A stretch of 64,000 nt of DNA from a virus: IMG/VR virus record IMGVR_UViG_3300033145_001136, positions 1 to 64,000 of that record, one strand, 5' to 3'. This document shows, in pieces, positions 21,087-40,631 of the stretch. The notes beneath the pieces were generated by a model. That model did not search any database, was not told the DNA's origin, and was given only the letters and a program-made list of their open reading frames with translations. The position numbers and the translations under genes are program-made. Position 1 is the first letter of the stretch. Each line of letters starts with the position of its first letter.

Positions 21087-21090
21087 CTAT

Positions 21091-21249
21091 TTAAGGTTTA
21101 TAGCGATTATTCCTGACCTCTTCGCTGAAACGCGAAAGCGATCGACACTTTTTATTGCAATATAGCTTTTGGTCAAAGTGATAGTTGCTGAAGCAATCTT
21201 CTCGTTTTATTTCAGCTCCACAATATTTACACTGCTTAACAGAAACCAT
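21091..21249 (-). CDS. Small zinc-finger protein (52 aa)
   Basis: Below the ORF-track cutoff: MVSVKQCKYCGAEIKREDCFSNYHFDQKLYCNKKCRSLSRFSEEVRNNRYKP*. Its ATG overlaps the terL stop (TAATG) and it fills the terL-portal gap. Confidence 0.7.
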   Translation of the reverse strand: MVSVKQCKYCGAEIKREDCFSNYHFDQKLYCNKKCRSLSRFSEEVRNNRYKP

Positions 21250-23687: not shown

Positions 23688-23900
23688 TTAATCGTCAATA
23701 ATAACTACGTATTGTAGTAGATTTGTCCACCACACAGCCACGGAAAGTGCCGTATCCTTAGTTTGCCAAGCTGTATTATCGTTATCATCTGTTAATCTAA
23801 TTATCCTATCATATGCTACTAGCCGCACTATCCATATACCAGCCCACTGAGTGTGTCTTGCTACGTGGATATAGCGTTGCTCTCCTGTAATTTCGCACAC
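23688..23900 (-). CDS. Hypothetical protein
   Basis: 70-aa ORF that fills the gap on the coding strand. Confidence 0.45.
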   Translation of the reverse strand: MCEITGEQRYIHVARHTQWAGIWIVRLVAYDRIIRLTDDNDNTAWQTKDTALSVAVWWTNLLQYVVIIDD

Positions 23901-24724: not shown

Positions 24725-24904
24725 TGTCCAACTCCATTGTCTTTCTAGCTATCCCGCAATTGTGCTATTGGCATGCATAAACCCTCATATAATAATTTAT
24801 TAGCATTAATGTTTCGTATCTTATAGTTATATCGACATTAAATATGTGGAGAATAAATATTAATACATGTATGTGGAGGACCTGTGTAAATACACATATA
24901 CATC

Positions 24905-24934
24905 GCCCCGATCTAACGTATGCTAGATCGGGGC
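24905..24934 (-). terminator. GC-rich stem-loop, possible terminator or processing site
   Basis: GCCCCGATCTA-N8-TAGATCGGGGC is a perfect 11-bp inverted repeat 28 nt after the stop at 24962. The U-tract is weak. Confidence 0.5.
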
Positions 24935-24961
24935 TTCCGAACAACGGCTTATTAGGTAGGC

Positions 24962-25378
24962 CTAGGTCCCAATGCCGAACGGCAGGCGGAAAGATGCAGC
25001 GATAGCTGGAAGATCCAGGTTAGTTAGGGAATCGGCTGTAGGTGTTTTGGTCTTGAAGGCATTGTTAAGGGACTGAACAGCGGCTGAAATTCCAACCATG
25101 AAAAGTCTCTTATCAAATGGTTCCAGCCAAAACGGGAATTTGATCATATCATCAAGCACCTCGGCTGCGTACTCAATACGATCTTTCTTATCAATCCCCC
25201 CTATTTCAGACCATACATATTCTACCACCGCAGCAACTTTCTGCAGGATTTCCCATATTACCGCAAATCCGTGCAAAAAGTCCTTAAAACCATCAATCTT
25301 GAGAACATCAGCAATCTGATCCTCTGTTTCCTCATTGATCAATAGTTCCTTAATCTTTTCAATGATCTCTGGATTCAT
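24962..25378 (-). CDS. Hypothetical protein
   Basis: 138 aa with a GGAGGT RBS; helical and amphipathic. Confidence 0.7.
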   Translation of the reverse strand: MNPEIIEKIKELLINEETEDQIADVLKIDGFKDFLHGFAVIWEILQKVAAVVEYVWSEIGGIDKKDRIEYAAEVLDDMIKFPFWLEPFDKRLFMVGISAAVQSLNNAFKTKTPTADSLTNLDLPAIAASFRLPFGIGT

Positions 25379-25553
25379 GTGTAGATACCTCCGATTTATG
25401 CCAGTTTAACATATACCCACATTTATTGCACCTATATGGACTACTACCCAAAATATAAGCTATATATAAGTCTCTAGTAATACTATATTTTGTGCGACAC
25501 CTATTACAATATAGCCACTTCGTAAGAATAATCTTATGCATACTATGTTCCAT
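25359..25553 (-). CDS. Small zinc-ribbon protein
   Basis: CNRC...CNKCG; overlaps both neighbours. Confidence 0.55.
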   Translation of the reverse strand: MEHSMHKIILTKWLYCNRCRTKYSITRDLYIAYILGSSPYRCNKCGYMLNWHKSEVSTHESRDH

Positions 25554-26223
25554 ACTCCATAGGGGCTTCTTTGATAATGAGTGCTAAAAGCATCCGGTGC
25601 TTTGTATTTTCGTCTGCGGTTGAGCGCATGATCTCTTCAACGGACCATCCCAGCACATCAGAACTAACAGCCGTACGAATTAAATACTGCAAATCATCTG
25701 CACTAAGAAACTGTCTCCGCATTGGCTCGTGATAACTCCGCAACTTCGGCATAAAGAGTATCACATTATATTTTGCCATCTGTACCGCTTTGGCAATCAA
25801 TGGGGCAGGATCTTCTTCACGCTCTAGCTCATTCATGATTATGACCGTACCAAATTGCCCAAATGGGGTAGCCGTAACGGGGATCTCTTCAAAAAATTTT
25901 CTTTTCATAATTAGATGTGATTCTGGTATCTGCATAGTCCTCTGATTTCTAATACAATCAAACATAGCTTGCTTTGATCCGTCTATTCCAACCACCTTAT
26001 GTCCTAGAGATGCCAAAAAAAGCGCAAATCTACCATCCTCTATGCCAGTAACCAGGATTGGGGATTCTACTGGGTACGTTTCCCATACATGTCGCTCCAC
26101 ATGCATTAGCGGTGGCATTTCTCCCAGTTTTAATGGATGCGCCTGCCTATGTGCCAGTGCTCTTGGGCGCATATAATATGCGTCGGCTGTCTTTGTTTTA
26201 TATTCTATTTTACCATCTACCAT
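25543..26223 (-). CDS. Class I SAM-dependent methyltransferase-like protein (degenerate motif I)
   Basis: ILVTGIEDGRFALFLASLGHKVVGIDGSKQAM and FGTVIIMNELEREEDP. Confidence 0.6.
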   Translation of the reverse strand: MVDGKIEYKTKTADAYYMRPRALAHRQAHPLKLGEMPPLMHVERHVWETYPVESPILVTGIEDGRFALFLASLGHKVVGIDGSKQAMFDCIRNQRTMQIPESHLIMKRKFFEEIPVTATPFGQFGTVIIMNELEREEDPAPLIAKAVQMAKYNVILFMPKLRSYHEPMRRQFLSADDLQYLIRTAVSSDVLGWSVEEIMRSTADENTKHRMLLALIIKEAPMEYGT

Positions 26224-26935
26224 TTCTTATCTCTTCCACTATGGGATCTATCTCACCATACAAAGTGTCAATCGATATCACATTATCTTCCCATTCCATT
26301 GGCACAAATTGCTGCACATCCTTTGAAAGTATGACCGTGCATATACCCTGTGATGCAGCGGCTAGTGCCTCTTCTCCCCTTCTACCGATCACAATGTCCG
26401 ATTGCTTAATATATGCCCATTCCTGTATATAGTCATATGGCTTAGTCGATTCTATTACCTGTACATATGTTGGTAATGCGCCCGTAGGCATTCCGCGATT
26501 CCCCAATATTATAAAATGCAAATCATCGTTAGTCCGCTTAAGTACGTCAATAAGTACTGCAACCCAGTGTAAGGTTGCACATAACGTCGATATAACAAAA
26601 CATATTACTGGGGTATCGAAATCCGCTTGGATTGATACAGGGACCGGTGTATATAGAATAATTTCTTTAGGGATTTTGTGTTTTGGGCTAGTTATACTGG
26701 GATTTATGTATGATTTATGTTTAGTGGCGCTTGTCAACAACGCAACATCAAATATCTCTAGATAATTTACGGTTAGCCATGGAACAGTACTAAACATCGA
26801 TTTTGCAATGGGGAGGATGTTTGGGGAGGTCTCAAGGTCTAACTCTACATCGTCGTCCTGCTCCGCTATACCGCATAGCTTCGCATACAATATGAAAACG
26901 TCTTCTGCGGTGGCTGGGGTTGAGTAGTATATCAT
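26210..26935 (-). CDS. Degenerate GT-B (GT9-like) glycosyltransferase
   Basis: C-terminal IKQSDIVIGRRGEEALAAASQGICTVIL echoes the GT9 'i..ad.vig.DSG..HlA.a.g..tv.l' pattern. Also HWVAVLIDVL...HFIILG. Confidence 0.4.
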   Translation of the reverse strand: MIYYSTPATAEDVFILYAKLCGIAEQDDDVELDLETSPNILPIAKSMFSTVPWLTVNYLEIFDVALLTSATKHKSYINPSITSPKHKIPKEIILYTPVPVSIQADFDTPVICFVISTLCATLHWVAVLIDVLKRTNDDLHFIILGNRGMPTGALPTYVQVIESTKPYDYIQEWAYIKQSDIVIGRRGEEALAAASQGICTVILSKDVQQFVPMEWEDNVISIDTLYGEIDPIVEEIRNGRW

Positions 26936-27669
26936 ATTGACCGTATCTCCTCCACCCATTCACAGATGTCTGGATGTGGATCCCGAAACGCTCGTATTGC
27001 TAAATCTACGAGTTTTTTGTTATTTGCTAGTTTGTGCATTATTGGGTGGCCTATATACGTACGCCACCTATCAAATACTTTCATACTGTCTGCAGTATCG
27101 GCATAATTAAATGCATCGAAACTAGATCCACCACCCTCACGAGTTACTTTAACATATGGCTTAAAGCAGTCTGGTGTAAGGCCCAAATATTCACCTATTT
27201 GTGCCCTATATGCATGCGACATAACCCACCTATTATATGATATTTGCAGCGTATCTATTGGTAAGTATGCTGTACTAATATATTCTTCGCACAGCTCAAG
27301 ATATATGTTTATCGTTCTCTCCGATAGTCGCCCATTATTCCCTTTCATATTAAGCCAACTAGCTGCCCAATTAAATGGATCACGTACCATGACAATATTT
27401 TTTACCTTATCACCATGCTCTGGAACTCTTTTCTGTATTAAGCCTACCTCATCTGGCCAATCAGCAGGTGTCTCTACACTAGTAACAAGTAATTCAACAT
27501 GTTTAGTTGAATGTAAACTATAACTCATCCTCCGTTGCATAGAATACTCATCACCAAAAGCATTATTAAAGTATTGCCACGATCCACCAGAATGGTCAAG
27601 TATCCAGTGAATAATTGGGTGGTGCCCGGAGCGACCCATCGCCCAAACCCTTATGTCATCAAAGTTCAT
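26932..27669 (-). CDS. Sulfotransferase-like P-loop protein (paralog 1)
   Basis: GRSGHHPIIHWI, VRDPFNWAASW, ISYNRW, GGGSSFD, VFDRW. Confidence 0.6.
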   Translation of the reverse strand: MNFDDIRVWAMGRSGHHPIIHWILDHSGGSWQYFNNAFGDEYSMQRRMSYSLHSTKHVELLVTSVETPADWPDEVGLIQKRVPEHGDKVKNIVMVRDPFNWAASWLNMKGNNGRLSERTINIYLELCEEYISTAYLPIDTLQISYNRWVMSHAYRAQIGEYLGLTPDCFKPYVKVTREGGGSSFDAFNYADTADSMKVFDRWRTYIGHPIMHKLANNKKLVDLAIRAFRDPHPDICEWVEEIRSI

Positions 27670-28393
27670 TAGGTAGCTCCGTTAATTTTTGCATATCCAT
27701 ATTGAAAATCTCTAATGATATTTCTTGCATACGCGAATGCGCAGCAAGTCTTTGCATGTATGGGTGTTCTTTGTATAATTTATATCTATTTAGCACGTCC
27801 ATTTGATCTGCTCTTCCTAAATATCGACGTCCATCGAAGCTAGATCCCTTACCAAATAGCGGCACGCCCATATATTGTTTCCAGCACGATTTTCGCAGCC
27901 CAAGCAACTCTCCTAATTGTACGCGATACGCTTCGCTAGTAAACCAATTATTATAATTAATCGGTATAAAAGGCTCTTCTAGTCTAGTTGTTAATCTTAA
28001 GTATTCTCGCGCATACTCCATATAACCAAACATAAACGTGCAATATACTTCGCCGGTATAGGTTTCCGTGTGAGGCCACCATTTCTTAATTGTACTCGCA
28101 AGCGTATTTAAAGGATCTCTCAGTGTTACTATATTTACACTGTGCATCCCGTCTGTCTTATATGTAAATAATTCTGATGGGAATAGGCTACTTTCAATAT
28201 TAACAAGCGCACCCATTTTTTTGTGCTGTGTTATCGTTATGTATTCTGATTTAACTTTATCTAGCCATTCAGTAGTTTGGGCCAAGCGACGCGTATAGTC
28301 AAGAAGGCCATCGTGATGTGTCCATATCCAGTCATTAACAGCATTGTGCCCCGTACGTGGCGGTGCATATACCCTGTAGTCATTATACTTCAT
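27659..28393 (-). CDS. Sulfotransferase-like P-loop protein (paralog 2)
   Basis: PRTGHNAVNDWI, LRDPLNTLAS, INYNNWF, GKGSSFD, VLNRY. Confidence 0.6.
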   Translation of the reverse strand: MKYNDYRVYAPPRTGHNAVNDWIWTHHDGLLDYTRRLAQTTEWLDKVKSEYITITQHKKMGALVNIESSLFPSELFTYKTDGMHSVNIVTLRDPLNTLASTIKKWWPHTETYTGEVYCTFMFGYMEYAREYLRLTTRLEEPFIPINYNNWFTSEAYRVQLGELLGLRKSCWKQYMGVPLFGKGSSFDGRRYLGRADQMDVLNRYKLYKEHPYMQRLAAHSRMQEISLEIFNMDMQKLTELPNEL

Positions 28394-29165
28394 TTAGCAG
28401 ATCTTTCAGTATTGTTCTACTAATGTCCATATCTACTTCATGAACTTTACCATATGTGAACGCCTCATCAACCACAAGATTGATATCAATCTCTTCATCC
28501 AGCGTAATATCAAGCTCGCCAATCATAATTGGGATGTCCACTCCCATATATTTGGATATGCTCGGTAGCAAGTATCCAAGCGCTTTACCATGCGGCACAC
28601 CGTAAAACCCTGTTAAGGGATATGACAAAGCGTGCAATAAATTGGTACCAGTTACTTCGATCAATTCACCAGCGGCATTGCCCAATTTCACAAGAGCAGA
28701 TGGATTAGCGATATACTTTATATCACCCAAAATATCTATAGCCCGATCCACGATTTCAACTGTGGCATTAATAGACCACATACTGTCAAGGCAATGGCTA
28801 ATAACATCATATAATGAGTACCTAAACATATACATGGGCAAATCCGCAGCAAACTCGTCGACTATTTCCACCTGGCTTGGTTTATATCTTCTCACAGAGC
28901 ACTTACGCGGCCCATCCCAGTAAACAGCCCATGACGTTACTGCAGATCCTGCACCCGTTGTTGGATAGCATTTTATTGGGGTTTTTGATAATATCTTTGC
29001 TGTGTCTATCACCGCACCTCCACCTATTGCCACCACCGATTCATAGAAGCCCAATGCAGAAATGTCCGTTGGCGCGGCTTCTACTACAAAAATATGTTCA
29101 AAATCCGCTTCTAAGAATTTCTTTGTAGACTTAGAACAAACTAACAAAGTATCTACCTTGTCCAC
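28383..29165 (-). CDS. Phosphonoacetaldehyde reductase (Fe-containing alcohol dehydrogenase, PhpC/FomC-like)
   Basis: IGGGAVIDTAK, PTTGAGS.VT, DVISHCLDS and HALSYPLT...VPHG (metal ligands). It is coupled to the ppd genes. Confidence 0.8.
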   Translation of the reverse strand: MDKVDTLLVCSKSTKKFLEADFEHIFVVEAAPTDISALGFYESVVAIGGGAVIDTAKILSKTPIKCYPTTGAGSAVTSWAVYWDGPRKCSVRRYKPSQVEIVDEFAADLPMYMFRYSLYDVISHCLDSMWSINATVEIVDRAIDILGDIKYIANPSALVKLGNAAGELIEVTGTNLLHALSYPLTGFYGVPHGKALGYLLPSISKYMGVDIPIMIGELDITLDEEIDINLVVDEAFTYGKVHEVDMDISRTILKDLLNEV

Positions 29166-29617
29166 AATGCCTCCTTTACCTCTACTGTGTTAATTCTACT
29201 ATCCACATCAACCCTGTCTGCTTTACCATCATTAGTTATTTTTATAATTTCCGTCACACCGGGATATTGCCCCTCCAACCTAGAACACTTAAATCCGCCC
29301 ACAGATTCATGGCATCCGTTGTCTAACACATAGACATATAGATTACTAAGGGCGTAATCTCGTATTGTATGCGTTATGCCAAGATGCATCAATAAGGCAG
29401 CGTCTCCGCTAATAACAACTATTTCCTTATCACTATTTAACGCCATACCAAGACCTATACATGGAGCCAACCCCATGCTACCCTGCATATAAAAGATGTT
29501 TTTCCGTAATGGGTACATATTATATGTTGCTCTAGATATGTACCCGGTACTTGTTACATACACCGCATCACCATGTTTATCAAAAATGTATCGTAGTGCT
29601 GCCTCTCTACTAATCAT
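29153..29617 (-). CDS. Phosphonopyruvate decarboxylase, beta (TPP-binding) subunit
   Basis: STGYISR, FYMQGSMG and the TPP motif GDAALLMHLG...LDNGCHESVGG. Confidence 0.88.
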   Translation of the reverse strand: MISREAALRYIFDKHGDAVYVTSTGYISRATYNMYPLRKNIFYMQGSMGLAPCIGLGMALNSDKEIVVISGDAALLMHLGITHTIRDYALSNLYVYVLDNGCHESVGGFKCSRLEGQYPGVTEIIKITNDGKADRVDVDSRINTVEVKEALWTR

Positions 29618-29984
29618 AGCTCACCTCATAGTTACCATATCCCAAAACTACCAGTAAATCCACATCACATCTACCCATTACCTCATGTTGAAACGGAGCC
29701 GTCCTATGTCCAATTATAAGTAACGGCTCGATACCATATGGCATACATAGGCTAGCCAATGGGTTTATAGCGTTACCCAATCCTGAATTTTGCATATACA
29801 CACATGTCTTTTTACCAGCCAATTCTGCGCCAACAGCTATACCTATCGCCTGTGACTCATGCGTAGCTATGACATGCTCCACACCAGAGTCGATGATATC
29901 CTGTATAAATCCTTTTAAGGAACTATCCGGAACCCCGACAAAGAAATCATACCCCTGGTCCATTAATTTCTGTACACTAATCAT
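29610..29984 (-). CDS. Phosphonopyruvate decarboxylase, alpha subunit
   Basis: [42 protein letters not shown]. Confidence 0.88.
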
Positions 29985-31251
29985 TTGGTATCATCTCCAC
30001 GATATCTCTTATTGGCATACATTGTCGGTTCGCTTCAAAGCACCGTCCATGCATTAGGATCACCTTGGCTACGTCTATCATTGCTGGGTAGGCTGCCCTC
30101 AAAAGATGATTCGCATAAATAACCACGCTAACGCCCATCGCCGCAAGTTCTGACTCGAGAATGTAGCCATATGTGGATGGCACTACCACCACCGGTACTT
30201 TACCACTATATTTCTCCATGAATTGGACAATTTCTGTGACCGATTGCTGCTTACTATGTATCATAATCGCATCAGCACCAGCATTAACATATGCCTCTGC
30301 TCTATCCAGCGCATCATCCAGCCCCTTACCCAATATAAAACTTTCTATTCTGGCGATAATCATGAAATCTTCTGTTACCTGCGCACGTTTACCCGCCTGG
30401 ATTTTTTCACAGAACCCCTCTATTGTATCTTGCGTCTGATCGGACGTATTTTCAAATAGAGAATTCCGTTTCAAGCCAATCTTGTCCTCCACAATAGCCG
30501 CAGACACACCAAAACGTTCTAAATTCTTAACCATTGATGTAAAGTGTTCTATTGGACCGCCATTGTCCACATCTACAATCATCGGTTTCGTTGTAACTCC
30601 AAAAATCTCGTTGATGGTATGGTCTATGGTAGTAATGTCGACAATTTGATTATCTGGCTTGCCCTTTGAAGTAGAGTGCGTAAGACTGCTTAACCACATA
30701 CCATCAAATCCATATCCATCAAATTCAGTTTTTTCCACAATAAGCCCCGTCAACCCATTATGGACCTCAAGAATGCGCACAGTTTCTTTGGATTCAATTA
30801 AACGTCTTAATGTTCCCATACGTACGCCGGGAGTTGTGCCCAATTCTTTTATAGCCTTATGAAGTTGTGTAGACGAAATGCCTTCGGTATATGGTATTTC
30901 TATTAATTCGCCACCCCAATTGGTCAATATATCTATAACTCTTTCCCTTGTTTTTCTTTGCGGCCCCTCTTTCCAATCGTCACCATGTACCACAAACGCC
31001 GGTTGTAACAAAAGTAAATTTTCGGTATAGTCCAACGTATCTTGCGGCATAACCTCGTCCACATACCTAATACTCTTAATGATCGTTTCTCTCTGTCCAT
31101 AAGTCAATGCCGGGAGTCGCTTATATGACGCTATTGCTTCATCAGTCAATAGCCCAACTATAACTTCTCCATATTCACTTGCTTCCCTGAGAACATTGAT
31201 GTGCCCCTGGTGAATTAGGTCAGCGCTCATGCCAACATAGACTAAGCTCAT
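29977..31251 (-). CDS. pepM: Cytidylyltransferase-phosphoenolpyruvate mutase fusion (Fom1/AepX-type)
   Basis: N-terminal DLIHQGH (HxGH), VHGDDW and YTEGISST. The C-terminal domain has the PepM signature [10 protein letters not shown] plus WLSSL, DVDNGG, IARIES and YANHLLRA. Confidence 0.95.
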
Positions 31252-32105
31252 AACAACTCCTCCAGTACATCAACGAATCTGCTTGCTGCAACCCCTTGAT
31301 ACTCACACAACATCTTTGAATGCCTCAACCGTTCTTCCTCTAAATAAAGTGGGTCATTAATATACCGTATCACCGCCATTTCCATCTCTTCTTGCGAATG
31401 TGCAACAATCGCGGCCTCATTAGCACACCCAGAAATATGAGAGTTGTCAACCCCCCATCGCGCATCCCCAATTAATATAGTCGGTATATTCAACACTATT
31501 GACTCAAGGTAGATCGAAGAATAATCAGATATTACCACTCCAGCCTCCATCATGTCTTCGTTTACAGATCTTGGATTAACACTATATGCCGGATGTGGTC
31601 GCACGCGAATACAAAATCCATATCTTTCCAAAGCCATAATCGCTATTTTATCGCCAGCATACACATTAGGCGATTTTTTATGATGTGTTGGTGCATATAG
31701 AGCCCATTTACCATTTATGTTGTTAAATAGTTTATCTAGCCTTGGCATGCCAACCACCTTAATCGACAAGCCATGCATCTCATGCCACTCCGCCCAAGCC
31801 TCGGAGAATGTAAAAATAAAATCGGAGTTTTTCTGGAGATCTGCTTTAAACTTTGGTTCGGTATAGAAAGCATTTTGTGGAACCACCGGGAACGCATGCC
31901 CTATCCAAACGCCCCTACCACCCATTCTGGTGCATGCCTCATCTGGTTGTATTGTAAAATCCGCATCGTCCCAATATGCCCTATAATCATCACATATTAT
32001 GGATTCGTGCCCTCGCCTAAGTAACTCCTCATGAATGTCTGTACAATATTCTTCATGAAATTTAAAAACCGAACAGTTATGTATAACTTTCATTGTGTTC
32101 TCCAC
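31248..32105 (-). CDS. CDP-glycerol glycerophosphotransferase (TagB/TagF) family protein
   Basis: [33 protein letters not shown]. Confidence 0.75.
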
Positions 32106-33211
32106 AATGACTCATAATATATGTGATCATCAATTGACGGATCTGTTACATCATCTTCTATCCAACTTTGTAACTCCTCTACCTCGCTTGTTAGTAGCTC
32201 CCAGTCCAGTTTTTCAGATTTACAATTTTTTGCTATTAATTTATCTAAATCACCAGGTACGAAATCACGAGTCAAATGTTGAAAAAATAGTCTATGATTT
32301 TTATGCAAAAAATAGCCACCGGGCTTGGAAATCTTGTTTATCAATGCTACATAATTAAGTACTACCTCATTGGGCATTTCCGTTAGGCTATGGGAATTAA
32401 ATACTAGGTCGGCAATGTTATCCTGGAAATAGGCGGGATCATATGCGCATCCAGAGGGCAATAACAAAATATCATTATCACCATCATCTTGCTCTCCAAA
32501 TAAAACAATTTTTTTATCGGGTAGGGCATGTATTAAGAAAAATGCGGAAAGAACACCTACTTGTGGCAAGTCGATTGATATATATTGCCCATCAAAATCG
32601 TTAAACTTAAATAAGTGATATGGGAAAGAACCCCACCCACCACCAATTTCAACTATTGTGTTTTTGTTGTCCGCTAAAATATTGCTAATCTGGTATGCAT
32701 TGTATGACTGACGCATCGCTGCTCTTATCAGCACACCTTTCCCATCAGTTGATTCGTACCCAAAAAAGTTCCCAAGGCCAATAGGGTAAAATAACGACTC
32801 CTCACTAATCACACCACTTGTCAGCTCTCTCCATTTTTCAATTTGCCATAATGTTGCGTCCACAAACCAATCAAACCCATATTGCTTAACAATTTTTATA
32901 TCATCATATAAGGATAATCCTTGTGTTGCTGGTTTTCGCCCAAAATTGAACAAGAATTTGCTAAGTGGAGCAATATCACCAAATTTAATTAGCCTATCTA
33001 TCGCAGTTATTATATTTGATGGATGCCACAGATCTGTTCCCACTGGTATAGATACCAAATCGGTATTTAAGTGCGGCATATCTTGCCCATATGCCATAGA
33101 CACATTGTAAAAATTGATAAGCCTTTCATACGTTTCATCTGATAAACTACTGTTTATCTTCGTTCGACCATGTGAGGCCGTTAACCCATCAACAGTTATT
33201 ATTTTGTCCAT
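32090..33211 (-). CDS. Putative sugar O-methyltransferase
   Basis: IVEIGGGWG, YISIDLP, DLVFNSHSLTEM...YV. Confidence 0.75.
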   Translation of the reverse strand: MDKIITVDGLTASHGRTKINSSLSDETYERLINFYNVSMAYGQDMPHLNTDLVSIPVGTDLWHPSNIITAIDRLIKFGDIAPLSKFLFNFGRKPATQGLSLYDDIKIVKQYGFDWFVDATLWQIEKWRELTSGVISEESLFYPIGLGNFFGYESTDGKGVLIRAAMRQSYNAYQISNILADNKNTIVEIGGGWGSFPYHLFKFNDFDGQYISIDLPQVGVLSAFFLIHALPDKKIVLFGEQDDGDNDILLLPSGCAYDPAYFQDNIADLVFNSHSLTEMPNEVVLNYVALINKISKPGGYFLHKNHRLFFQHLTRDFVPGDLDKLIAKNCKSEKLDWELLTSEVEELQSWIEDDVTDPSIDDHIYYESLWRTQ

Positions 33212-33924
33212 AATGCTTTCTGATAATCGGAATAAAATGTGACCACGTTTTTGTAGTATGGTTCCAATTTAAGTCCTAGTTTCACCAATGTGTTCGTAAA
33301 TGGGACTTCTCCAGCCCATACATGATGGTCTACATTGGTTTCTTCTTCTGGCCCTTTATAGTGTGGAATACACCCATGAACTGCAACAATTTCATCTATG
33401 TATTCCCTACTGGTACAGCCAGCTCCACCATGCACGTGCTCTGTTGATCTACCCCTATGGCCAAGCTCCCCATGTACAGCTACATATGCAATCAACTGCT
33501 CACTATTCAATTGCCCTATACACCCCATTATACAATGTTGCTCAATAAGTAATTGGTCATCCTCTAAAAAAATCCAGTACTCATATTGTTCCCGCAACTG
33601 TTTAAATGCGTAATTATATCCCCCAAAAGCTCTCCCAACATTCTCCCTGGTTAATATAACCATTTCCCCATTCTTTGTTTTTGTTCCATTTATTGATGCA
33701 AGATATTTATTCCCTGGTGTATACCCAATATCGTTATTAACGATAATGGTATCAACGCATATGCCATTATCTACCGATTGCTCTAGCTGATATATTACTT
33801 TTAACATCTCCAAAATACCTTCAGCATCTAATCCCTCTTGACTATGCGAAGGCCACGTGCGCACCTCTTTTTTCCTGTTAGCAAAAGTTGTTACAATTAC
33901 TTTTGCCACATTTGCGTTCGACAT
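33199..33924 (-). CDS. GT-A fold glycosyltransferase-like protein
   Basis: IIVNND, RENVGRAFGGYNYAF, YWIFLEDD. Confidence 0.6.
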   Translation of the reverse strand: MSNANVAKVIVTTFANRKKEVRTWPSHSQEGLDAEGILEMLKVIYQLEQSVDNGICVDTIIVNNDIGYTPGNKYLASINGTKTKNGEMVILTRENVGRAFGGYNYAFKQLREQYEYWIFLEDDQLLIEQHCIMGCIGQLNSEQLIAYVAVHGELGHRGRSTEHVHGGAGCTSREYIDEIVAVHGCIPHYKGPEEETNVDHHVWAGEVPFTNTLVKLGLKLEPYYKNVVTFYSDYQKALWTK

Positions 33925-33927
33925 GCC

Positions 33928-34527
33928 CTACCTCTTCACACAAATGGTGATTGATGGATATGGCCTAATAACAACTGCATCATAAATTGTGCCAATTAAT
34001 GGGTGTCCGTTTATTACTGGTTGAATTTTGGGTTTATTAAATTTCTTCATCCAGGGTACCATATCGCGTTTCTCACTCCCACCCTCGAATATTAGTACCC
34101 CGCCAGTAGTTAGCTTATACTCTGCATCTACCAAAAATCTATCAAATACAGCTCCATTATTGGATATGTCGACATGCATAAAATCAATTGTGTTATCTTC
34201 ATAGTCGTCTAGCACACTGTATGCATCTTTTTGAATTAAATCTACCCAATCCTGCAATGCTACAGCATCGATACTCAATTGTGTCTCACTCTGGAGCGTA
34301 TGGTGATATGCATACTTATCCCATAAATCATATGCATATAGATGCCCATAGTTGTTATCTCTCAATGCTGCAGCTATAAAAATAGTACTATATCCACCCA
34401 GTGTACCTATTTCTACGCACCTACTTGGATTTATGCAACGTAGTAATGAATAGAACATTTGTCCATAATTATTACGCTTATAAGAAGATGTTATTAAGTT
34501 TGCCTGTGCTATTACGTCATCTATCAT
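33928..34527 (-). CDS. Class I SAM-dependent methyltransferase (Methyltransf_24-like)
   Basis: CVEIGTLGGYST, YAYDLW, IDFMHVD, LTTGGVLIF. Confidence 0.8.
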   Translation of the reverse strand: MIDDVIAQANLITSSYKRNNYGQMFYSLLRCINPSRCVEIGTLGGYSTIFIAAALRDNNYGHLYAYDLWDKYAYHHTLQSETQLSIDAVALQDWVDLIQKDAYSVLDDYEDNTIDFMHVDISNNGAVFDRFLVDAEYKLTTGGVLIFEGGSEKRDMVPWMKKFNKPKIQPVINGHPLIGTIYDAVVIRPYPSITICVKR

Positions 34528-34528
34528 C

Positions 34529-35710
34529 TTACCAACCCTTCTTAATCATTTCGACTATATATTCCGCATCTTCTGATGTTACCCAATGCCCCACCGGGAT
34601 ACTAATTTGGTGCTTATCACAATATTCCAAGTTATGTAAGCATTCTTTTGATTTAAATTCACTAAATACCGCATATTTATCATTCCTGACATGTACAACA
34701 CTCGTATGTATATTTCTATCTCGCATCGCCCTAATAAAGTCATCACGTTTTTCAACAAATATAGTATATAAATAGTATGCAGACTTTGTGCCTACTTTCA
34801 TTTGCTCATGTAGCGGGACCGGTAGCGACAAAATCCCCGGCACATTCATTAGTTTGTCATCATAAAACATAGCGTTAAGTCTGCGTATTTCTAAATTCTC
34901 ATCAAGATATGGTAATTGTGATAGCCCAATTGTTGCAGAAACATCATTCATGTGCCCTTTCAGCCCAACCTCCATTATTTCCCAATCGTCGTGCCCTGTA
35001 AGTGCTTTTCTTCTATATCGCCTATCAATCCCATACCATCTCAAAACTCTGATATGTTCATAGTCTTCTGCCTTATATGTAGTAACTAGCCCACCATCTA
35101 TAGATGTCATTTGCTTAACAGCTTGTAGGGAAAACATGCAAAAGTCTGAGTGTTTGCCGAGCCCATAATTGCACACGCCCACAGGACGGCCATGATAGTA
35201 TGCCCCATTCGCATGTGCGGCATCCTCTATAATATTGATATATTGTCCAGGGCCTTGGCTCACAGCAGCTCTAAGCCTATACATATCAATTGGATATCCG
35301 CCCCAATGTACAGCGGCCACTGCTTTTGTCTTGTTGGTAATTAATTGTGACACTGAGTTTGGGTCTATATTACCTGTCTCTGTATCAACATCTGCCCAAA
35401 CTATTTTTGCTCCCGCTCGTAGAAACGGTAATGTCCCCGCAGTACACGTCAATGGGGACATTAATATCTCGTCCCCAGGTGCAATATCTAGCAACATAGC
35501 TATTAAATCAAGCCCTACTGTCCCGGAACACACAGCATTGACAAATGTGGTATCAAACCTCTCTGCGAATTTTCCCTCTAGCTCCTTCACCTTTGGCCCC
35601 TCGCCAATCCATCCACTCTCGAGTACTGGCCTTAATGCATCTAAAACTTCATCTACAGGAGGCATAAACACCTTAAGCAGTGGTATCATTTCTTTTGGCT
35701 TATACGACAT
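34529..35710 (-). CDS. DegT/DnrJ/EryC1/StrS family PLP-dependent sugar aminotransferase
   Basis: SGWIGEGP, SGTVGL, VHWGGYP, IEDAAHA, FSLQAVKQMTSIDGG (PLP Lys), LRWYGI. Confidence 0.92.
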   Translation of the reverse strand: MSYKPKEMIPLLKVFMPPVDEVLDALRPVLESGWIGEGPKVKELEGKFAERFDTTFVNAVCSGTVGLDLIAMLLDIAPGDEILMSPLTCTAGTLPFLRAGAKIVWADVDTETGNIDPNSVSQLITNKTKAVAAVHWGGYPIDMYRLRAAVSQGPGQYINIIEDAAHANGAYYHGRPVGVCNYGLGKHSDFCMFSLQAVKQMTSIDGGLVTTYKAEDYEHIRVLRWYGIDRRYRRKALTGHDDWEIMEVGLKGHMNDVSATIGLSQLPYLDENLEIRRLNAMFYDDKLMNVPGILSLPVPLHEQMKVGTKSAYYLYTIFVEKRDDFIRAMRDRNIHTSVVHVRNDKYAVFSEFKSKECLHNLEYCDKHQISIPVGHWVTSEDAEYIVEMIKKGW

Positions 35711-35712
35711 TA

Positions 35713-36528
35713 TTAATCTCCTAGTAGTTCACCAAGTCTAAACACTTCGTTTTCAAATTGCCTTGTTGAAAATCCCCATTTTTCCTCAAACATCTTATGT
35801 GCCACTTGCCTTGCGGACCATGCCCATTTGCTTGTAGTGGCCTCTACAAAATGGTACACAAGGCATTCGGGCACATTACACATTCTCTCTGGATGTCCTT
35901 TGTGGAATCTGTTATAAAATTGTACCACCCAATCAGGGTCAGAACAAAATCCTGGCCAAAATCTTGTATCCCACCCACCGAGATCAATCCAATCCTTTGT
36001 CCTAACTACCTGTGGCTCCATTGTTATTTTTCTGTCTTGTTTAATATTATTATCCACAAACCAAGTTAATAAAGCTTGCTCTCTAAAGGTTTCTATGTAA
36101 CGCCCAAAGTCTTTTTGAATAGTTATATCACCCCTGGAAGGCACAGGCTCAATCAGCGATAAAGCTCTCCAAATACCCGGTTCATCCGGATCGGTTATAC
36201 TTTCCGCCAGCGCTTTATCCCATCCTGGTAAATAATACATATCGTTGTCTGTCGGCAATACAAAATCAACTTCTATCTTCGGTGTTAATACCTCATACGC
36301 CAAAGGAATACCCTGGTTATCAGGAGAACATGTCCAATCAAAATGATGCCATTCTTCCTCAAGACACTCAGCGGCAAATCTATCTTTGTCAGAAAATTCG
36401 TTAAAATGTACCAAAAATTGATGATTATCTGGCCATTCGCTATTCTCTATTATGCTCCGTGCCGACAGCTTAACAAGGTCTGGTCGATTCAGTGATGGAA
36501 CTAATATTGCTACACTAATTTCATTCAT
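35713..36528 (-). CDS. Glycosyltransferase family 2
   Basis: ILVPSLNR, NQGIP, TDNDMYYLPGWD, GGWDTRFWPGFCSDPDW, VYHF. Start taken as ATG 36528 (ATGA overlap). Confidence 0.8.
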   Translation of the reverse strand: MNEISVAILVPSLNRPDLVKLSARSIIENSEWPDNHQFLVHFNEFSDKDRFAAECLEEEWHHFDWTCSPDNQGIPLAYEVLTPKIEVDFVLPTDNDMYYLPGWDKALAESITDPDEPGIWRALSLIEPVPSRGDITIQKDFGRYIETFREQALLTWFVDNNIKQDRKITMEPQVVRTKDWIDLGGWDTRFWPGFCSDPDWVVQFYNRFHKGHPERMCNVPECLVYHFVEATTSKWAWSARQVAHKMFEEKWGFSTRQFENEVFRLGELLGD

Positions 36529-37391
36529 GGCAAATCCCTTATGGTCTCTATCCAAGTTTCTATAGGGTGTAGGTGCCCAAATATTTGTATTGCCATATTC
36601 GTGAGTTCTTTGTCTTCAATGAGCTCTTTTAATTGTTTTGCCACACGTGGATCTTGCCAACGCTCCAGTACACGCATATTGTTAGCTTTCCCATCGTAAT
36701 CAAATTTATTGAAACTGCTCCCACCACCTCTCCATGGTATGTCATTATATGGGAGTGCGCATCCTGGTGCTAGATCAAATTTTTCCCCTATTTTTGCCCT
36801 ATACTCCGCGCTAAGGAACCACTCATTAAATAAAATAGGAATCAGTTGATATTCTGTTACATTTGTTTCCCCCAAAATTTCCCGACACAAACTTTTATAA
36901 CATTCTATATATTTTGGATTATCTAATACATCGTTCTTGTGCATAAGTCTACTAGCTGTCCAATTAAATGGATCTCGCAATATAAGGATATCGTACACAC
37001 GCCTGCTAGCTCCCCTCTTCCAGTATTTATGTCGTGCTACCCCCTTGTCTCCACGAAATAGTTCAGTTCTTTCAGTTGGTTGGTTCAGTTCTTGAATGGC
37101 TTCCCCTAACGAAAATTCTAGTTCTATGGAATACATGAAAGTCTCGCGATAAGGGAAACCATTCAAGATATCTAATGCACTTGTGATAGTTGTATGTGAA
37201 AGTTCTGCTCTGCATTCTCTCTGTGTATACCCCCGAAGCACTGAACAATTTCTAAGAGCCTTCTCCCTATCGAATACCCCCTGTATATGCATACATGGGA
37301 TCTGTGCATGGTATTCAATCCAATGCGTTACGGCCTGATGCCCGCCCCTACTTAAGGCAAACATCCTTAATTCTCGTTCATTAAATATCAT
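36525..37391 (-). CDS. Sulfotransferase-like P-loop protein (paralog 3)
   Basis: SRGGHQAVTHWI, LRDPFNWTASR, ILFNEWF, GGGSSFN, VLERW. Confidence 0.6.
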   Translation of the reverse strand: MIFNERELRMFALSRGGHQAVTHWIEYHAQIPCMHIQGVFDREKALRNCSVLRGYTQRECRAELSHTTITSALDILNGFPYRETFMYSIELEFSLGEAIQELNQPTERTELFRGDKGVARHKYWKRGASRRVYDILILRDPFNWTASRLMHKNDVLDNPKYIECYKSLCREILGETNVTEYQLIPILFNEWFLSAEYRAKIGEKFDLAPGCALPYNDIPWRGGGSSFNKFDYDGKANNMRVLERWQDPRVAKQLKELIEDKELTNMAIQIFGHLHPIETWIETIRDLP

Positions 37392-38182
37392 AAATACTCC
37401 ACATAATTGCCTTCATCATCAAATGTTGGGCCATGTTCCGCATGAGGCTGCATTTCGATACTCATTTTTCTTACAGTGGACCCACATTCTTTAGCAAACA
37501 TCTGTTCATATTTATGTACCCCCTTTATAAATCTGGCCCTACCCTGTGGTCGCGTTGTAAGCCTAAAATGATAAATAAACGATGCTGGATGATTTAGTTG
37601 TAACCTACCGCGTTTTTTACAATATTTATATGCATTGTATAACAAATAAAATTCGCCAAGAAAACACCGTTCATCAAACCCACCTATTTTCAAAAAATCT
37701 TCTGTCCGCATCGCGGCAGGCAAATACGAAGCAACATATCTGACCGGATGCATTCTATGTGCAAAATCTTTTTTAAGTCGCTCTTCCTCAAATGTATCGA
37801 TGGTTCTACCATAATCGCCGACAATCGATCTATTAGGACGATCAGGTTCAATTTGTGTTGGTGCCCTCCATGCACCAATACCGGTTAATTCATCCGTAAT
37901 ACAGTCCCACCCAGGTAACATATACATATCTACATCACAAATAAACATCGTTTCATATTTCACGTCCTGAGCCATTGTGTTGTAGGCCACACCAACGCCT
38001 ACGTTATTCAGTTGTCGGTAACATTGTACATCTTTTGAGTCACACCAATCTGCAGTGCCATCTTTACTACCATTATCCCACACCATTAATTCATATGGGC
38101 CAACAGTATGCTCTTCTAGCGATTTATGTAACAATTTAAGATAATCTAACTGATTATGGCATGGTACTAGTACGCTAATCAT
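37388..38182 (-). CDS. Glycosyltransferase family 2
   Basis: ISVLVPCHN, WDNGSKDGT, CDVDMYMLPGWD, IGGFDE, IYHF. It is a paralog of 35713-36528. Confidence 0.85.
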   Translation of the reverse strand: MISVLVPCHNQLDYLKLLHKSLEEHTVGPYELMVWDNGSKDGTADWCDSKDVQCYRQLNNVGVGVAYNTMAQDVKYETMFICDVDMYMLPGWDCITDELTGIGAWRAPTQIEPDRPNRSIVGDYGRTIDTFEEERLKKDFAHRMHPVRYVASYLPAAMRTEDFLKIGGFDERCFLGEFYLLYNAYKYCKKRGRLQLNHPASFIYHFRLTTRPQGRARFIKGVHKYEQMFAKECGSTVRKMSIEMQPHAEHGPTFDDEGNYVEYL

Positions 38183-39405
38183 AATTTAGATTTTATCCAT
38201 TTTGGCATTGTCTCCACATACTCTTGTCCATCGAAATAGTATGATCGGTCATGCTCTTCTTTTGTTTTTAATCGCTGGTGCCACCCGGTCATAATATTAC
38301 CACTCCTGGCAAATGTCTGCTGCGATCTCCATAGGTGCCGCTCAAGACACCAATCGTAATCTACCCTATGTAAGTGCACAAAAATCAGGTCTTCGTCTGT
38401 TTCTATGTCCATCGCTATATGTATTCCATCTATTAATTGTGATGCTGCTTTATACGCAAGTCCCCAATAAATAGGGATTTTAGTTATTGCGGGCTTATCC
38501 GCATGATCACCAGCACCTCCTACCCGTGTGGTTGCATCTCGCCTATACCAATACTTGCGCTGCTTCAAAATAGGTTTTGTAAAATCTAATGCTGGTTCCT
38601 CATCTGGATTATGCCACACTTCATAACACACATTTCTAATAACATCAGCCTCCATTTTTTCAACATAATCCATCAGGTCAGCATATTTATCAGAATTAGG
38701 TATCAAAAACTCATCTGTTTCCACAAATATGACGGTCTCATATTCTTTAAGCAATTCGTGCTGGAATTGATTAACCATGTCCACCATCCAGCGACGAGCA
38801 AAGTACTCCTCATTCTTAATTAGAATCGTGTTACATAATAAATCATCAGTTGACCCATCGTTACTTTGATGATCAAGTATGTACACATTCTCATTACCAA
38901 ATATCTTTGCATAATAATCAACCCATATTGGTAAGATTACTGCCTCATTTTTAGATATAGTAAATACAGCACACTTACGTTTCTGTGTCTTAAATATTCC
39001 AAGCGATTTGGCATCAATTATTTCCGTAATCTTCGGAGTAGGCTTTGCATCATCCTGTAATTCAACTTTGGCAATCGTTCTGGCTGCTAAAGATTTGTCA
39101 TGTTTGGTTTCGTTTTGTGCTTGTTTAAACGAATTTGGCACAACACCCTTAGCAATTTGTTTAAGTGTGTCAAGCATTAAATTATATTTAGATTTAAACT
39201 CCGCCCCTGATTTTGTACCAACATCTGGTATGCTAAGTCTTATTTGCAACGTTAAATCTATTGCAGACCCTTCCTCGGAAACCTCGATTTTTTTAATAAT
39301 ATCAGATTTTTCCATTGCTGGCTTCAGTGCTTTTTTCGCTGTTTTCTTTATTCCTTTCTTATTATCGCTTGGCAAATGTCTTGCCTTACCCCCTGAAATT
39401 GGCAT
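38179..39405 (-). CDS. GT2-like glycosyltransferase (Glyco_tranf_2_4-like) with a basic N-terminal extension
   Basis: TISKNEAVILPIWVDYY, ILDHQSNDGST, IFVETDEF, VHLH. The first ~140 aa are Lys-rich. Confidence 0.75.
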   Translation of the reverse strand: MPISGGKARHLPSDNKKGIKKTAKKALKPAMEKSDIIKKIEVSEEGSAIDLTLQIRLSIPDVGTKSGAEFKSKYNLMLDTLKQIAKGVVPNSFKQAQNETKHDKSLAARTIAKVELQDDAKPTPKITEIIDAKSLGIFKTQKRKCAVFTISKNEAVILPIWVDYYAKIFGNENVYILDHQSNDGSTDDLLCNTILIKNEEYFARRWMVDMVNQFQHELLKEYETVIFVETDEFLIPNSDKYADLMDYVEKMEADVIRNVCYEVWHNPDEEPALDFTKPILKQRKYWYRRDATTRVGGAGDHADKPAITKIPIYWGLAYKAASQLIDGIHIAMDIETDEDLIFVHLHRVDYDWCLERHLWRSQQTFARSGNIMTGWHQRLKTKEEHDRSYYFDGQEYVETMPKWIKSKL

Positions 39406-39407
39406 TC

Positions 39408-40340
39408 TTATACCTCTCTATACATTATTTGGTTAAATATACTATGTGGAGTTAGTTCATTCATACACACATATTCACTACAAGTATCCCACCTAGAAGT
39501 GTACTGACATGGCGCACAATCTAAGCTAACTCGCAAAATCTCTGCATTTGGTTCTAGTGGTCTATTTTTAACAAGTGATGTGGGCCCCCATATGAAAAAG
39601 GTTTTTATTCCCAATACTGATGCCATATGTCCTGGCCCACAATCATTCGCTATAACATAGTCGCATTGTGACAGTACATGAGAAGTTTGAAACAAAGTAT
39701 ATTTTCCTATACGATTATGTATAACCGCAAAAGCATCCCCCTCTATGGTGGCATTATAGGCATGGTAGTCGTCAAAATCCTCGTGTTCTCCCCCAATAAT
39801 AATAACTTTGTGTCCATCGCGCTGCAATAGCTCTGCAAGTTCTGCAAAATGGGGCCATTTCTTACGTCCCCACTGCCAATCTGAGCGACCACCAGGTATT
39901 AAGCCGACTATTTTCTTAAATGGTTCTTGTCCATCTTCATAATCGAACGTTTCCCCACTATTCGATGTGAGTAGTGCCATGTTTCTTGGTGGCATTTCCC
40001 CTACATACCCCAACAATCTTACCGCATCTAGATTGGATTCTGTTTCATGGATCTGTGTAACCCTATCTCTCGGTGCCCTTACTATGCGATCGTATTTGTA
40101 TCCTTTTAATTCCTCATCAGCATGAAAAATGGATTGCACCACTAAGTCATACTGTGTATGTGATGGTTGCTCACCGGTTTTGTATGTATTATTACACAAA
40201 CCGATCCATAATTCAGGAAATTCTGTGAGCACATCAATACTATTAGATGGAGCAGGGAACACCATGTGTAGCGCAGCTACTGCTGGAGAAGCGTTAAGAT
40301 TATTCCCTATGCCCGATACAGAATGGTATAATATCTTCAT
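39408..40340 (-). CDS. Glycosyltransferase family 9 (heptosyltransferase-like)
   Basis: SGIGN, HETESNL, GLIPG....RKKWPHFAELA, IANDCGPGHMAS.LG, IWGPT, CAPC...C....CM. Confidence 0.88.
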   Translation of the reverse strand: MKILYHSVSGIGNNLNASPAVAALHMVFPAPSNSIDVLTEFPELWIGLCNNTYKTGEQPSHTQYDLVVQSIFHADEELKGYKYDRIVRAPRDRVTQIHETESNLDAVRLLGYVGEMPPRNMALLTSNSGETFDYEDGQEPFKKIVGLIPGGRSDWQWGRKKWPHFAELAELLQRDGHKVIIIGGEHEDFDDYHAYNATIEGDAFAVIHNRIGKYTLFQTSHVLSQCDYVIANDCGPGHMASVLGIKTFFIWGPTSLVKNRPLEPNAEILRVSLDCAPCQYTSRWDTCSEYVCMNELTPHSIFNQIMYREV

Positions 40341-40385: not shown

Positions 40386-40631
40386 TTACCAAATGTTGGG
40401 AGCTGGCCTACTAGCTTTCTCCTCTTCTTTCTCATCCTCTTCATCAACGAGAGGCGTAACCTCATGGATATCCATAGAAACCGGCTCGTCCTCGAGAATT
40501 GGTTCGCTATCCTTAAGAATCTTTTTTGCCTCCGCAATCAATAGTGCAAATGCATTTTTACACGTCTTGAATGCCATCGGCGTATTCATTCCAGCCACTT
40601 TTTTCACAAATACTTCGAACTTGTCTTCCAT
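40386..40631 (-). CDS. Small acidic hypothetical protein
   Basis: 81 aa with a TAATG overlap with the upstream gene and a GGAG RBS. Confidence 0.6.
   Translation of the reverse strand: MEDKFEVFVKKVAGMNTPMAFKTCKNAFALLIAEAKKILKDSEPILEDEPVSMDIHEVTPLVDEEDEKEEEKASRPAPNIW

Follow-up and report, generated by a model that had tools for sequence, protein, structure and literature searches.

We analysed a stretch of viral DNA of 64,000 nucleotides (hereafter the window), which is the first 64 kb of the IMG/VR viral contig IMGVR_UViG_3300033145_001136 (102,947 bp; class linear; CheckV completeness 66%), from a large, uncultured phage. Its main feature is a glycan-building island of 18 open reading frames (ORFs) on the minus strand, running from 40340 down to 25543, with stops and starts overlapping at almost every junction (Table 1). 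A preliminary description, made from the sequence alone, had counted about 17 contiguous genes; the contiguous run was found as described, but the count is 18. The minus strand carries about 107 of the 121 ORFs of the contig and, in transcription order, a DnaE-like polymerase and an SbcC-like gene precede the island, which is followed by a weakly sigma-like gene, the terminase, the portal, a protein of 4766 amino acids (aa) and a capsid/protease gene. In tetranucleotide composition the island matches the remainder of the phage (r = 0.936; other chunks gave 0.89-0.97), and this composition, together with the conserved phage genes on both flanks, ruled out a chimeric assembly or host contamination.

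The gene content gives good support to the idea that soluble enzymes encoded in the island would make a methylated, aminated and probably sulfated glycan bearing 2-hydroxyethylphosphonate (HEP).

Enzymes encoded in the island

Four consecutive ORFs form the phosphonate module. The first encodes a cytidylyltransferase-phosphoenolpyruvate (PEP) mutase fusion (hereafter PepM), with a PF01467 domain at residues 9-130 and a PEP_mutase domain at residues 148-398. Its translation contains the EDKX5NS motif, which was defined as specific for phosphonate-forming mutases, Ppm (PMC6697681, PMC8942020), and the PF01467-Ppm architecture is that of Fom1, which makes CMP-HEP, the cytidine monophosphate (CMP) derivative of HEP (PMC6697681). 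As in Fom1-Fom2-FomC and in the bacterial PntC-Ppm operons (PMC6697681), the fusion is followed by a decarboxylase and then by an Fe-dependent alcohol dehydrogenase (Fe-ADH). The island differs from these systems in that the decarboxylase is split, the dehydrogenase is about 100 aa shorter, no antibiotic genes lie downstream and the surroundings are glycosyltransferase genes without membrane proteins. Each decarboxylase half scores under the whole-protein TIGR03297 cut-off of 312.5; we would argue that the split enzyme is functional, because the split form is kept at 60-70% identity in ten viral contigs. In the short dehydrogenase, the GGG-x-x-D loop and the D...H...H...H residues are visible by eye. 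The adjacent Fe-ADH and the lack of a transaminase for 2-aminoethylphosphonate (AEP) argue for HEP, then CMP-HEP, as the product rather than AEP. It is well supported by the gene content that the mutase, the two-piece decarboxylase and the short Fe-ADH would convert PEP into HEP, which the fused cytidylyltransferase would activate to CMP-HEP, as in Fom1. A phosphonate-antibiotic pathway was ruled out, no radical-SAM (S-adenosylmethionine) methyltransferase or epoxidase being present among the 18 genes.

The gene whose stop overlaps the PepM start encodes a short TagF/TarB-like transferase. Like TagF and TarB, the protein matches the Pfam family above its cut-off and contains YAPT, RPHP and DYSS motifs, and its gene abuts the one for the CMP donor. 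It differs from them by its length of only 285 aa, its marginal score, the lack of a membrane-targeting region and a predicted CMP-phosphonate donor instead of a cytidine diphosphate-polyol. No sequence match was obtained in the PDB, and no homolog was found in the bacterial and viral PepM loci. This protein is the obvious candidate for a CMP-HEP:glycan phosphonyl transferase, which would act on a sugar hydroxyl.

Three island proteins are paralogs with a sulfotransferase fold. When the AF2 model of paralog 3 was compared with known structures, VIA Z scores of 11.3-13.3 were obtained over 175-217 residues (the maximum over 214 residues), and the top 50 chains were all sulfotransferases using 3'-phosphoadenosine 5'-phosphosulfate (PAPS). 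Foldseek gave a probability of about 1.0 to PAPS sulfotransferases, and Atlas template modelling (TM) scores were 0.6-0.7. The trio shares invariant R-x-G and R-D-P...S motifs, and we take the R13-x-G15 loop and R96...S104 (R-x7-S) to fit the 5'-PSB and 3'-PB PAPS-binding motifs. The three proteins are probably PAPS-type sulfotransferases. No APS kinase was found in the contig. Their family comprises 1639 representative clusters and has no Pfam model; none of the three paralogs, and only three of 50 family members (weakly), match Pfam Sulfotransfer_1/_3. Among 50 viral loci, the commonest neighbour of this family is a nucleoside-diphosphate-sugar dehydratase/epimerase, and an unrelated viral contig (L030) carries together two sulfotransferase-like genes, GT2 genes, a Methyltransf_24 gene, a DegT gene and an FdtA isomerase gene. 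In the isolated phages of the phage collection, no member of the sulfotransferase-like family was found, and GT9 matches were confined to records resembling bacterial DNA.

The other families were assigned with Pfam and NCBIfam profiles, as for the whole island, and paralogy was assessed by BLAST among the island proteins. The first gene encodes a GT9 glycosyltransferase. Although it belongs to the same Pfam family as WaaC, WaaF, WaaQ, TibC and Aah, the best equivalog model, TIGR02195, gave 63.9 bits for a cut-off of 134.6 and the others gave less, so that the protein scores far under the WaaC, WaaF and WaaQ cut-offs; only two further homologs were found among 5.8 billion proteins. The Glyco_tranf_2_4 protein encoded next has a Lys-rich N-terminal extension of about 130-150 aa, probably disordered, which could possibly serve for targeting or for binding to nucleic acid or membrane. 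The Atlas model of the product of 33199-33924 gave TM scores of 0.67-0.89 to GT2/RgpF-like and unnamed clusters, several of which are mostly viral. For the DegT-type protein, the top NCBIfam matches were PseC (211 bits) and ArnB (192 bits), each under its cut-off. The DegT gene adjoins the Methyltransf_24 gene in the island as well as in L030, and a DegT-like match lies beside a Methyltransf_24 gene in the viral contig G014 (see below).

The last gene but one encodes an orphan protein, for which the homolog search found nothing and a single-sequence model had a pLDDT of 33. Its one hydrophobic stretch (residues 119-137) lies partly within the region that hhalign aligns to GT9 (133-211); given this overlap, it may belong to a buried core and not span a membrane.

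Most of the gene assignments of the preliminary description hold. The GT9, three GT2-type, GT-A-like and DegT genes are confirmed by profile matches, by paralogy and by the GT-A-fold Atlas model; among the phosphonate genes, the mutase is confirmed by TIGR02320 above its cut-off and by EDKX5NS, while the two TIGR03297 halves and the Fe-ADH match below their cut-offs; and the three sulfotransferase-like proteins are true paralogs with a PAPS-sulfotransferase fold. The proposal of a heavily decorated glycan agrees with the methyl-, amino-, sulfotransferase-fold and HEP genes assigned here. Two of the three announced methyltransferases were recovered by profile, the third giving only the weak match of Table 1. 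As for the protein called GT9-like, its profile match to the C-terminal half of GT9 is weak, and the name is tentative.

Table 1. Island genes, in transcription order, followed by other genes mentioned in the text (positions in the window unless stated)
Feature	Length (aa)	Position	Strand	Evidence or remark
GT9-family glycosyltransferase, first island gene	310	39408-40340	-	PF01075, E 6.9e-20, 71.8 bits (gathering score 22)
Glyco_tranf_2_4 glycosyltransferase	408	38179-39405	-	PF13704, residues 152-235, 32 bits; GT-A domain
GT2 glycosyltransferase	264	37388-38182	-	PF00535, 52.1 bits; 34% identical to GT2 in viral locus L030
Sulfotransferase-fold paralog 1	288	36525-37391	-	Paralog of 26932-27669 (E 1e-32) and 27659-28393
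GT2-type paralog	280	35713-36555	-	No Pfam match; 27% identity to 37388-38182 over 260 aa, E 1e-22
DegT/PseC/ArnB-type sugar aminotransferase	393	34529-35710	-	PF01041, 248 bits
Class I SAM methyltransferase	199	33928-34527	-	PF13578 (Methyltransf_24), 59.3 bits
GT-A-fold protein, probable glycosyltransferase	241	33199-33924	-	No Pfam match; Atlas model
Sugar O-methyltransferase	373	32090-33211	-	TIGR04371 (NanM-type), 73.8 bits (cut-off 44)
Short TagF/TarB-like transferase	285	31248-32105	-	PF04464, 23.7 bits (gathering score 22.1), marginal
Cytidylyltransferase-PEP mutase fusion, Fom1-type	424	29977-31251	-	TIGR02320, 372 bits (cut-off 319.55)
Phosphonopyruvate decarboxylase, N-terminal half	124	29610-29984	-	TIGR03297 positions 1-119, E 1e-31, 110 bits
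Phosphonopyruvate decarboxylase, C-terminal half (thiamine pyrophosphate-binding)	154	29153-29617	-	TIGR03297 positions 171-284, E 1e-26, 94 bits
Short Fe-dependent alcohol dehydrogenase, probable phosphonoacetaldehyde reductase	260	28383-29165	-	TIGR03405, E 3e-19, 69 bits (cut-off 423.7)
Sulfotransferase-fold paralog 2	244	27659-28393	-	Island BLAST paralogy; shared motifs
Sulfotransferase-fold paralog 3	245	26932-27669	-	AF2 model, pLDDT 86.9
Orphan protein, possibly GT-B half-domain	249	26210-26959	-	hhalign 43% to GT9 C-terminal Rossmann half
Probable class I methyltransferase, last island gene	226	25543-26223	-	Weak UbiG-type match, E 0.0019
DnaE-like polymerase		44025-47465	-	First in the transcription order given
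SbcC-like nuclease subunit		40631-44080	-	phrog_77, E 1e-48; upstream island boundary; homologs in L003-L007
Weakly sigma-like protein		23861-24724	-	PF08281, E 0.0019, under Pfam cut-off; downstream island boundary
Terminase large subunit		21249-22991	-	phrog_2; closest relatives 33-37% identical
Portal		19167-21086	-	3' of terminase in transcription order
Glyco_tranf_2_4 and TPR protein	1030	62464-64000, to genome 65556	-	About 200 aa of TPR repeats
Double-GT2 protein	581	Genome 65553-67298 (L022:3553-5298)		Just upstream of the TPR-glycosyltransferase on the coding strand

Viral phosphonate cassettes and relatives of the island phage

A scan of IMG/VR with the mutase yielded ten contigs (GC 0.32, 9-51% complete) with four matching ORFs. 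We compared them with 80 bacterial loci, mostly from Bacteroidota, in which the order fusion-decarboxylase-dehydrogenase is kept in 75-80 cases. The decarboxylase is split into two ORFs in 10/10 viral and 0/80 bacterial loci, and the median dehydrogenase reading frame is about 268 aa in the viral loci and about 375 aa in the bacterial ones. The two decarboxylase halves of the island are 62% and 66% identical to the viral copies, against 45% and 36% for the bacterial copies, and its dehydrogenase is about 49% identical to the former and about 30% to the latter. The PepM of the island shows 62% identity to viral copies and about 60% to bacterial ones. In a quick tree of PepM, a branch with 98% support had on one side the island, the ten viral contigs and two contigs from 'Patescibacteria' bins; the branch of the island phage is long and its placement unsure. 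The two bin contigs (L086 and L134, 'Patescibacteria group') have a PepM in the viral clade and an unsplit decarboxylase; they could be donors or recipients, or else mobile DNA placed in the wrong bin.

A GT9 gene lies about 2 kb upstream of the cassette in nine of the ten viral contigs. One of them, G014 (94 kb), was fetched whole. It has no backbone genes in common with the island phage, and its cassette sits within a run of 26 same-strand, overlapping ORFs for soluble proteins. The cassette, recurring in several contigs of which G014 shares no backbone, looks from its gene content like a streamlined virus-specific module moving between phages. We consider this compact virus-borne CMP-HEP cassette, linked to a GT9 gene and to soluble glycan clusters, as our most solid new result: a complete HEP-activation route in a tailed phage, recurring as a virus-specific set of four genes in ten IMG/VR contigs. 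In a survey covering 364 huge-phage genomes and 501 metagenome-assembled genomes of giant viruses, one virus-encoded phosphonate locus was reported, for AEP in a giant virus (PMC8942020), and in the literature we found no paper on phage phosphonate genes.

Other matches concern single genes. Upstream of PepM in another viral cassette, the ORF at L179:8778-10004 is not significantly similar to the TagF-like gene, nor to any solved structure. Two 'Bacteriophage sp.' faecal contigs matching PepM were discarded, as they are not related phages and have only phosphonate genes in common. In a T4-like phage (G015, 116.9 kb, Gp23 capsid 466 bits), at L181:10001-11151, a stand-alone cytidylyltransferase, 55% identical to the N-terminal domain of the island's fusion, is immediately followed by a short Fe-ADH (35% identical); no PEP mutase match was present in the fetched locus.

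Relatives of the island phage itself are distant. Neither megablast with the island nor tblastn with the terminase found a match in 50,697 phage records, and a single-sequence pattern scan of IMG/VR with the terminase gave no relative; relatives were found by an alignment-based scan of IMG/VR with the same protein. In these relatives the gene order SbcC - ThyX - sigma-like - terminase - portal is preserved and the 15-kb island is absent, yet all have glycan genes of their own. In G001, the interval from the sigma-like gene to the terminase contains genes for a hexapeptide acyltransferase, a PIG-L deacetylase, a GT2 enzyme and a methyltransferase, and a second soluble cluster (GT2, GT4-like, Methyltransf_24, Glyco_tranf_2_4, GT2) lies 6-13 kb downstream of the capsid gene. 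G002 and G003 have a GT2-like gene after SbcC. G003 also encodes a single 727-aa GT2-GT9-methyltransferase fusion (L156:3935-6118, that is G003 23935-26118), directly after six Ser/Thr-enriched fibre-like ORFs (G003 11094-21903) which follow a tape-measure-like gene. The similarity of these enzymes to those of the island is faint.

The island phage has two more glycosyltransferase genes, for the TPR-glycosyltransferase and the double-GT2 protein, between its primase-helicase and helicase genes; no homologs were found between the helicase and primase genes of G001 and G003. The island is accessory and, in our reading, long resident in the phage; the soluble glycan theme is lineage-wide.

Two further observations were made on these relatives. 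ThyX lies directly upstream of the sigma-like gene in both relative groups (L003:4258-4947, L004:5897-6574); at this position the island phage has an unrelated 138-aa ORF (window ~24962-25378), and neither ThyX nor ThyA is encoded in the contig. A conserved protein of 116-118 aa with about four hydrophobic segments is encoded 1-2 kb downstream of the capsid gene (G003 173400-173750, G001 11662-12018). No Pfam family matches it, and possible identities are a holin or a small flippase-like protein; the corresponding region is absent from the island contig.

Destination of the glycan

The preliminary description had reported no flippase, exporter, undecaprenyl-phosphate transferase or multi-pass membrane glycosyltransferase, and had taken this as an argument for a cytoplasmic acceptor, most likely capsid or tail proteins. 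We examined this absence over the contig, which represents 66% of the genome. No polytopic (multi-span) protein was detected by a Kyte-Doolittle scan, either in the island or over the 103 kb of the contig, and profiles for ABC_tran, Bac_transf and MraY/WecA gave no match in the contig. As a positive control, ORFs with at least four hydrophobic segments were found in 46 of 60 bacterial PepM loci, against 0/9 viral loci and none in the contig. Nor was a large polytopic protein found in the 92%-complete relative G003. The flippase, polymerase, transporter and priming transferase that define Wzx/Wzy or ABC-dependent loci are likewise missing from the part of the genome in hand. GtrABC serotype conversion is, like the island, a phage-encoded glycan modification, but it involves three membrane proteins, none of which is present in the contig. 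The observation itself therefore stands for the contig. However, the lack of an exporter is by itself a weak argument for a cytoplasmic acceptor: in bacteria the corresponding enzymes are soluble or peripheral too and depend on carriers and exporters of the host, and a third of the genome is absent. The better supported part of the virion-coat proposal is the soluble enzymology of a decorated glycan.

We propose the following scheme for what happens beyond CMP-HEP. Six to eight glycosyltransferases (GT9, GT2-type and GT-A-fold) would assemble an oligosaccharide out of nucleotide sugars of the host, and the DegT enzyme would turn one of these sugars into an amino sugar. Two or three methyltransferases, the three sulfotransferase-fold enzymes (with host PAPS) and the TagF-like enzyme (with CMP-HEP) would then decorate the chain. 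In the last and least certain step, the acceptor would be a phage protein, most likely of the capsid, tail or fibre, so that the particles would carry a charged, hydrolysis-resistant glycan.

Several observations favour an acceptor owned by the phage. The viral cassettes checked lack membrane proteins nearby, whereas the bacterial ones mostly have them; the glycan genes of the relatives lie near structural genes, with the G003 fusion beside fibre-like genes; and the same genome encodes a TPR-glycosyltransferase, TPR domains usually binding proteins. There are also experimental precedents in mycobacteriophages and giant viruses. The capsid and tail tube of mycobacteriophages carry glycans (Freeman et al. 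2023, as cited in PMC12619734). As in the island, soluble phage-encoded glycosyltransferases act in the cytoplasm and the gene content varies between related phages; in that case, the glycans were shown by experiment on capsid and tail-tube subunits, whereas the island is known here from genes alone. The mycobacteriophage system reportedly involves methyltransferases and few genes, and is said to have no phosphonate, sulfate or aminotransferase and to operate in actinobacterial hosts. The clusters of giant viruses (chloroviruses, fibrils of Megavirinae) resemble the island by their virus-owned nucleotide-sugar tailoring enzymes and soluble glycosyltransferases. In one AEP cluster of nucleocytoplasmic large DNA viruses (NCLDV), GCF 881, Ppm-Ppd is coupled to amino-sugar genes and was read as making a viral phosphonoglycan (PMC8942020). 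All these giant viruses infect eukaryotes, and the NCLDV cluster forms AEP via a transaminase, where the island has a cytidylyltransferase fusion and a route to HEP. In Prochlorococcus, phosphonoglycans linked to protein are known (PMC8931226).

Other points weigh against a virion coat. No acceptor candidate and no Ser/Thr-rich protein was found in the contig, in which the tail module is absent and the capsid gene is incomplete at its end. In bacteria, too, the GT9, GT2 and TagF-type enzymes are soluble or peripheral, although their acceptors are lipid-linked and are exported by the host. The TagF-like gene, with its marginal 23.7 bits, is missing from the ten other viral cassettes, and the activity and donor of the sulfotransferase trio are deduced from fold and motifs. 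No signal for the timing of expression was obtained, scans for promoter and terminator consensus remaining at chance level and a 9-mer search of the intergenic regions giving no common motif. Finally, the sole NCBIfam matches of the GT9 protein are heptosyltransferases of lipopolysaccharide (LPS); it gave no match to a TibC-type, protein-glycosylating heptosyltransferase model, the presence of such a model in the library not having been checked. Taking both sides into account, we regard virion proteins as a plausible acceptor, at slightly under an even chance. More tentatively, we suggest that tailed phages of at least two groups without shared backbone may use the virus-only CMP-HEP cassette, together with soluble GT9/GT2 enzymes, sulfotransferases and methyltransferases, to coat their own particles with a phosphonate/sulfate glycan whose synthesis would be wholly cytoplasmic.

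The strongest competing explanation is a remodelling of the host envelope. The enzymes would modify lipid-linked host intermediates of the LPS core, capsule or teichoic type on the cytoplasmic side of the membrane, and host flippases or ABC transporters would export the altered glycan with its phosphonate and sulfate groups, a change which could block superinfection or shield the cell from grazers or enzymes until lysis. This would fit with the GT9 family, best known for its LPS-core heptosyltransferases, with the TagF-type enzymes, which act on lipid-linked polymers, and with the bacterial phosphonate operons, which lie in membrane-protein-rich loci typical of surface polysaccharide. Most known phosphonate decorations are carried by structures of the cell surface (PMC6697681, PMC8942020), and the variable content among the relatives would suit a diversification of surface antigens. 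On the other hand, the GT9 equivalog scores are all far under the cut-offs, and the lack of a priming transferase would imply full dependence on matching host intermediates. The circulation of a streamlined cassette in viral contigs, including G014 without shared backbone, argues for a host-independent acceptor; the glycan genes of the relatives are in late or structural regions; and 18 genes are a heavy load for a brief change in a cell that will lyse. We consider envelope remodelling as less likely than a virion coat, but as a serious alternative.

Another cytoplasmic target appears improbable. It could be a non-structural protein of the host or phage (for takeover or anti-defence), or the product could be a soluble small molecule or oligosaccharide. 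All the enzymes are soluble, as this would require, and the TPR-glycosyltransferase fusion suggests the recognition of a protein partner, but the size of the pathway and its load of sulfate, phosphonate and methyl groups are typical of extracellular glycoconjugates, and no radical-SAM or epoxidase gene of the kind used to make phosphonate antibiotics is present.

Hypermodification of DNA, in which the glycosyltransferases would decorate a modified base, like those of T-even phages and of phages carrying TET/JBP-type oxidases, is very improbable: the island does lie just before the packaging genes and two further glycosyltransferase genes are among the replication genes, but the contig has no match to PF00303, PF02511, PF12851, PF00145 or PF02195 (no hydroxymethylase of the thymidylate-synthase type, ThyX, TET/JBP oxidase, C5-methylase or ParB), and known DNA glycosylation uses one to few transferases, not 18 genes with a TagF-like enzyme and sulfotransferases. 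The lack of base-hydroxymethylating or oxidising enzymes agrees with the preliminary description, which had held phage DNA to be the less likely acceptor; its proposed check of the remaining genome for hydroxymethylases and exporters was negative over the whole contig, that is 66% of the genome.

Phosphonates constitute a large, poorly sourced pool of organic phosphorus, so far tied to cellular surfaces. If the glycan coats the virion, phage particles would count among the carriers and sources of environmental phosphonates, a role not recognised before, and would have a new kind of shield. Virion glycosylation would then comprise, beyond simple methylated sugars, charged coats that resist phosphatases, with possible effects on adsorption, survival, grazing and immune recognition. 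If the host envelope is the target, the island would represent a new surface conversion by a lytic phage needing no phage membrane proteins.

Neighbouring phage genes

The weakly sigma-like gene downstream of the island had been presented as a sigma-like regulator. Its Pfam match is under the cut-off, but the gene is kept in the relatives, where homologs of 23-24% identity occupy the matching position. Between it and the 138-aa ORF, a 59-aa hydrophobic ORF (24765-24944) looks spurious and was discarded.

After the portal comes a single ORF of 4766 aa (window 4874-19174), of which the relatives keep short stretches only (25% identity over about 280 aa). The capsid/protease gene (window 1-791) is truncated by the contig start; joining the contig ends does not restore it, and a circular contig was rejected. 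The far end of the contig (64-103 kb) contains genes for a ligase and helicases and an HNH gene. Tail genes were looked for in this region and none was found, which places the tail module outside the 66% in hand. Elsewhere in the window, a class II ribonucleotide reductase of 1655 aa (51376-56343) is interrupted by intein-type insertions, with Intein_splicing, LAGLIDADG_3 and HINT matches.

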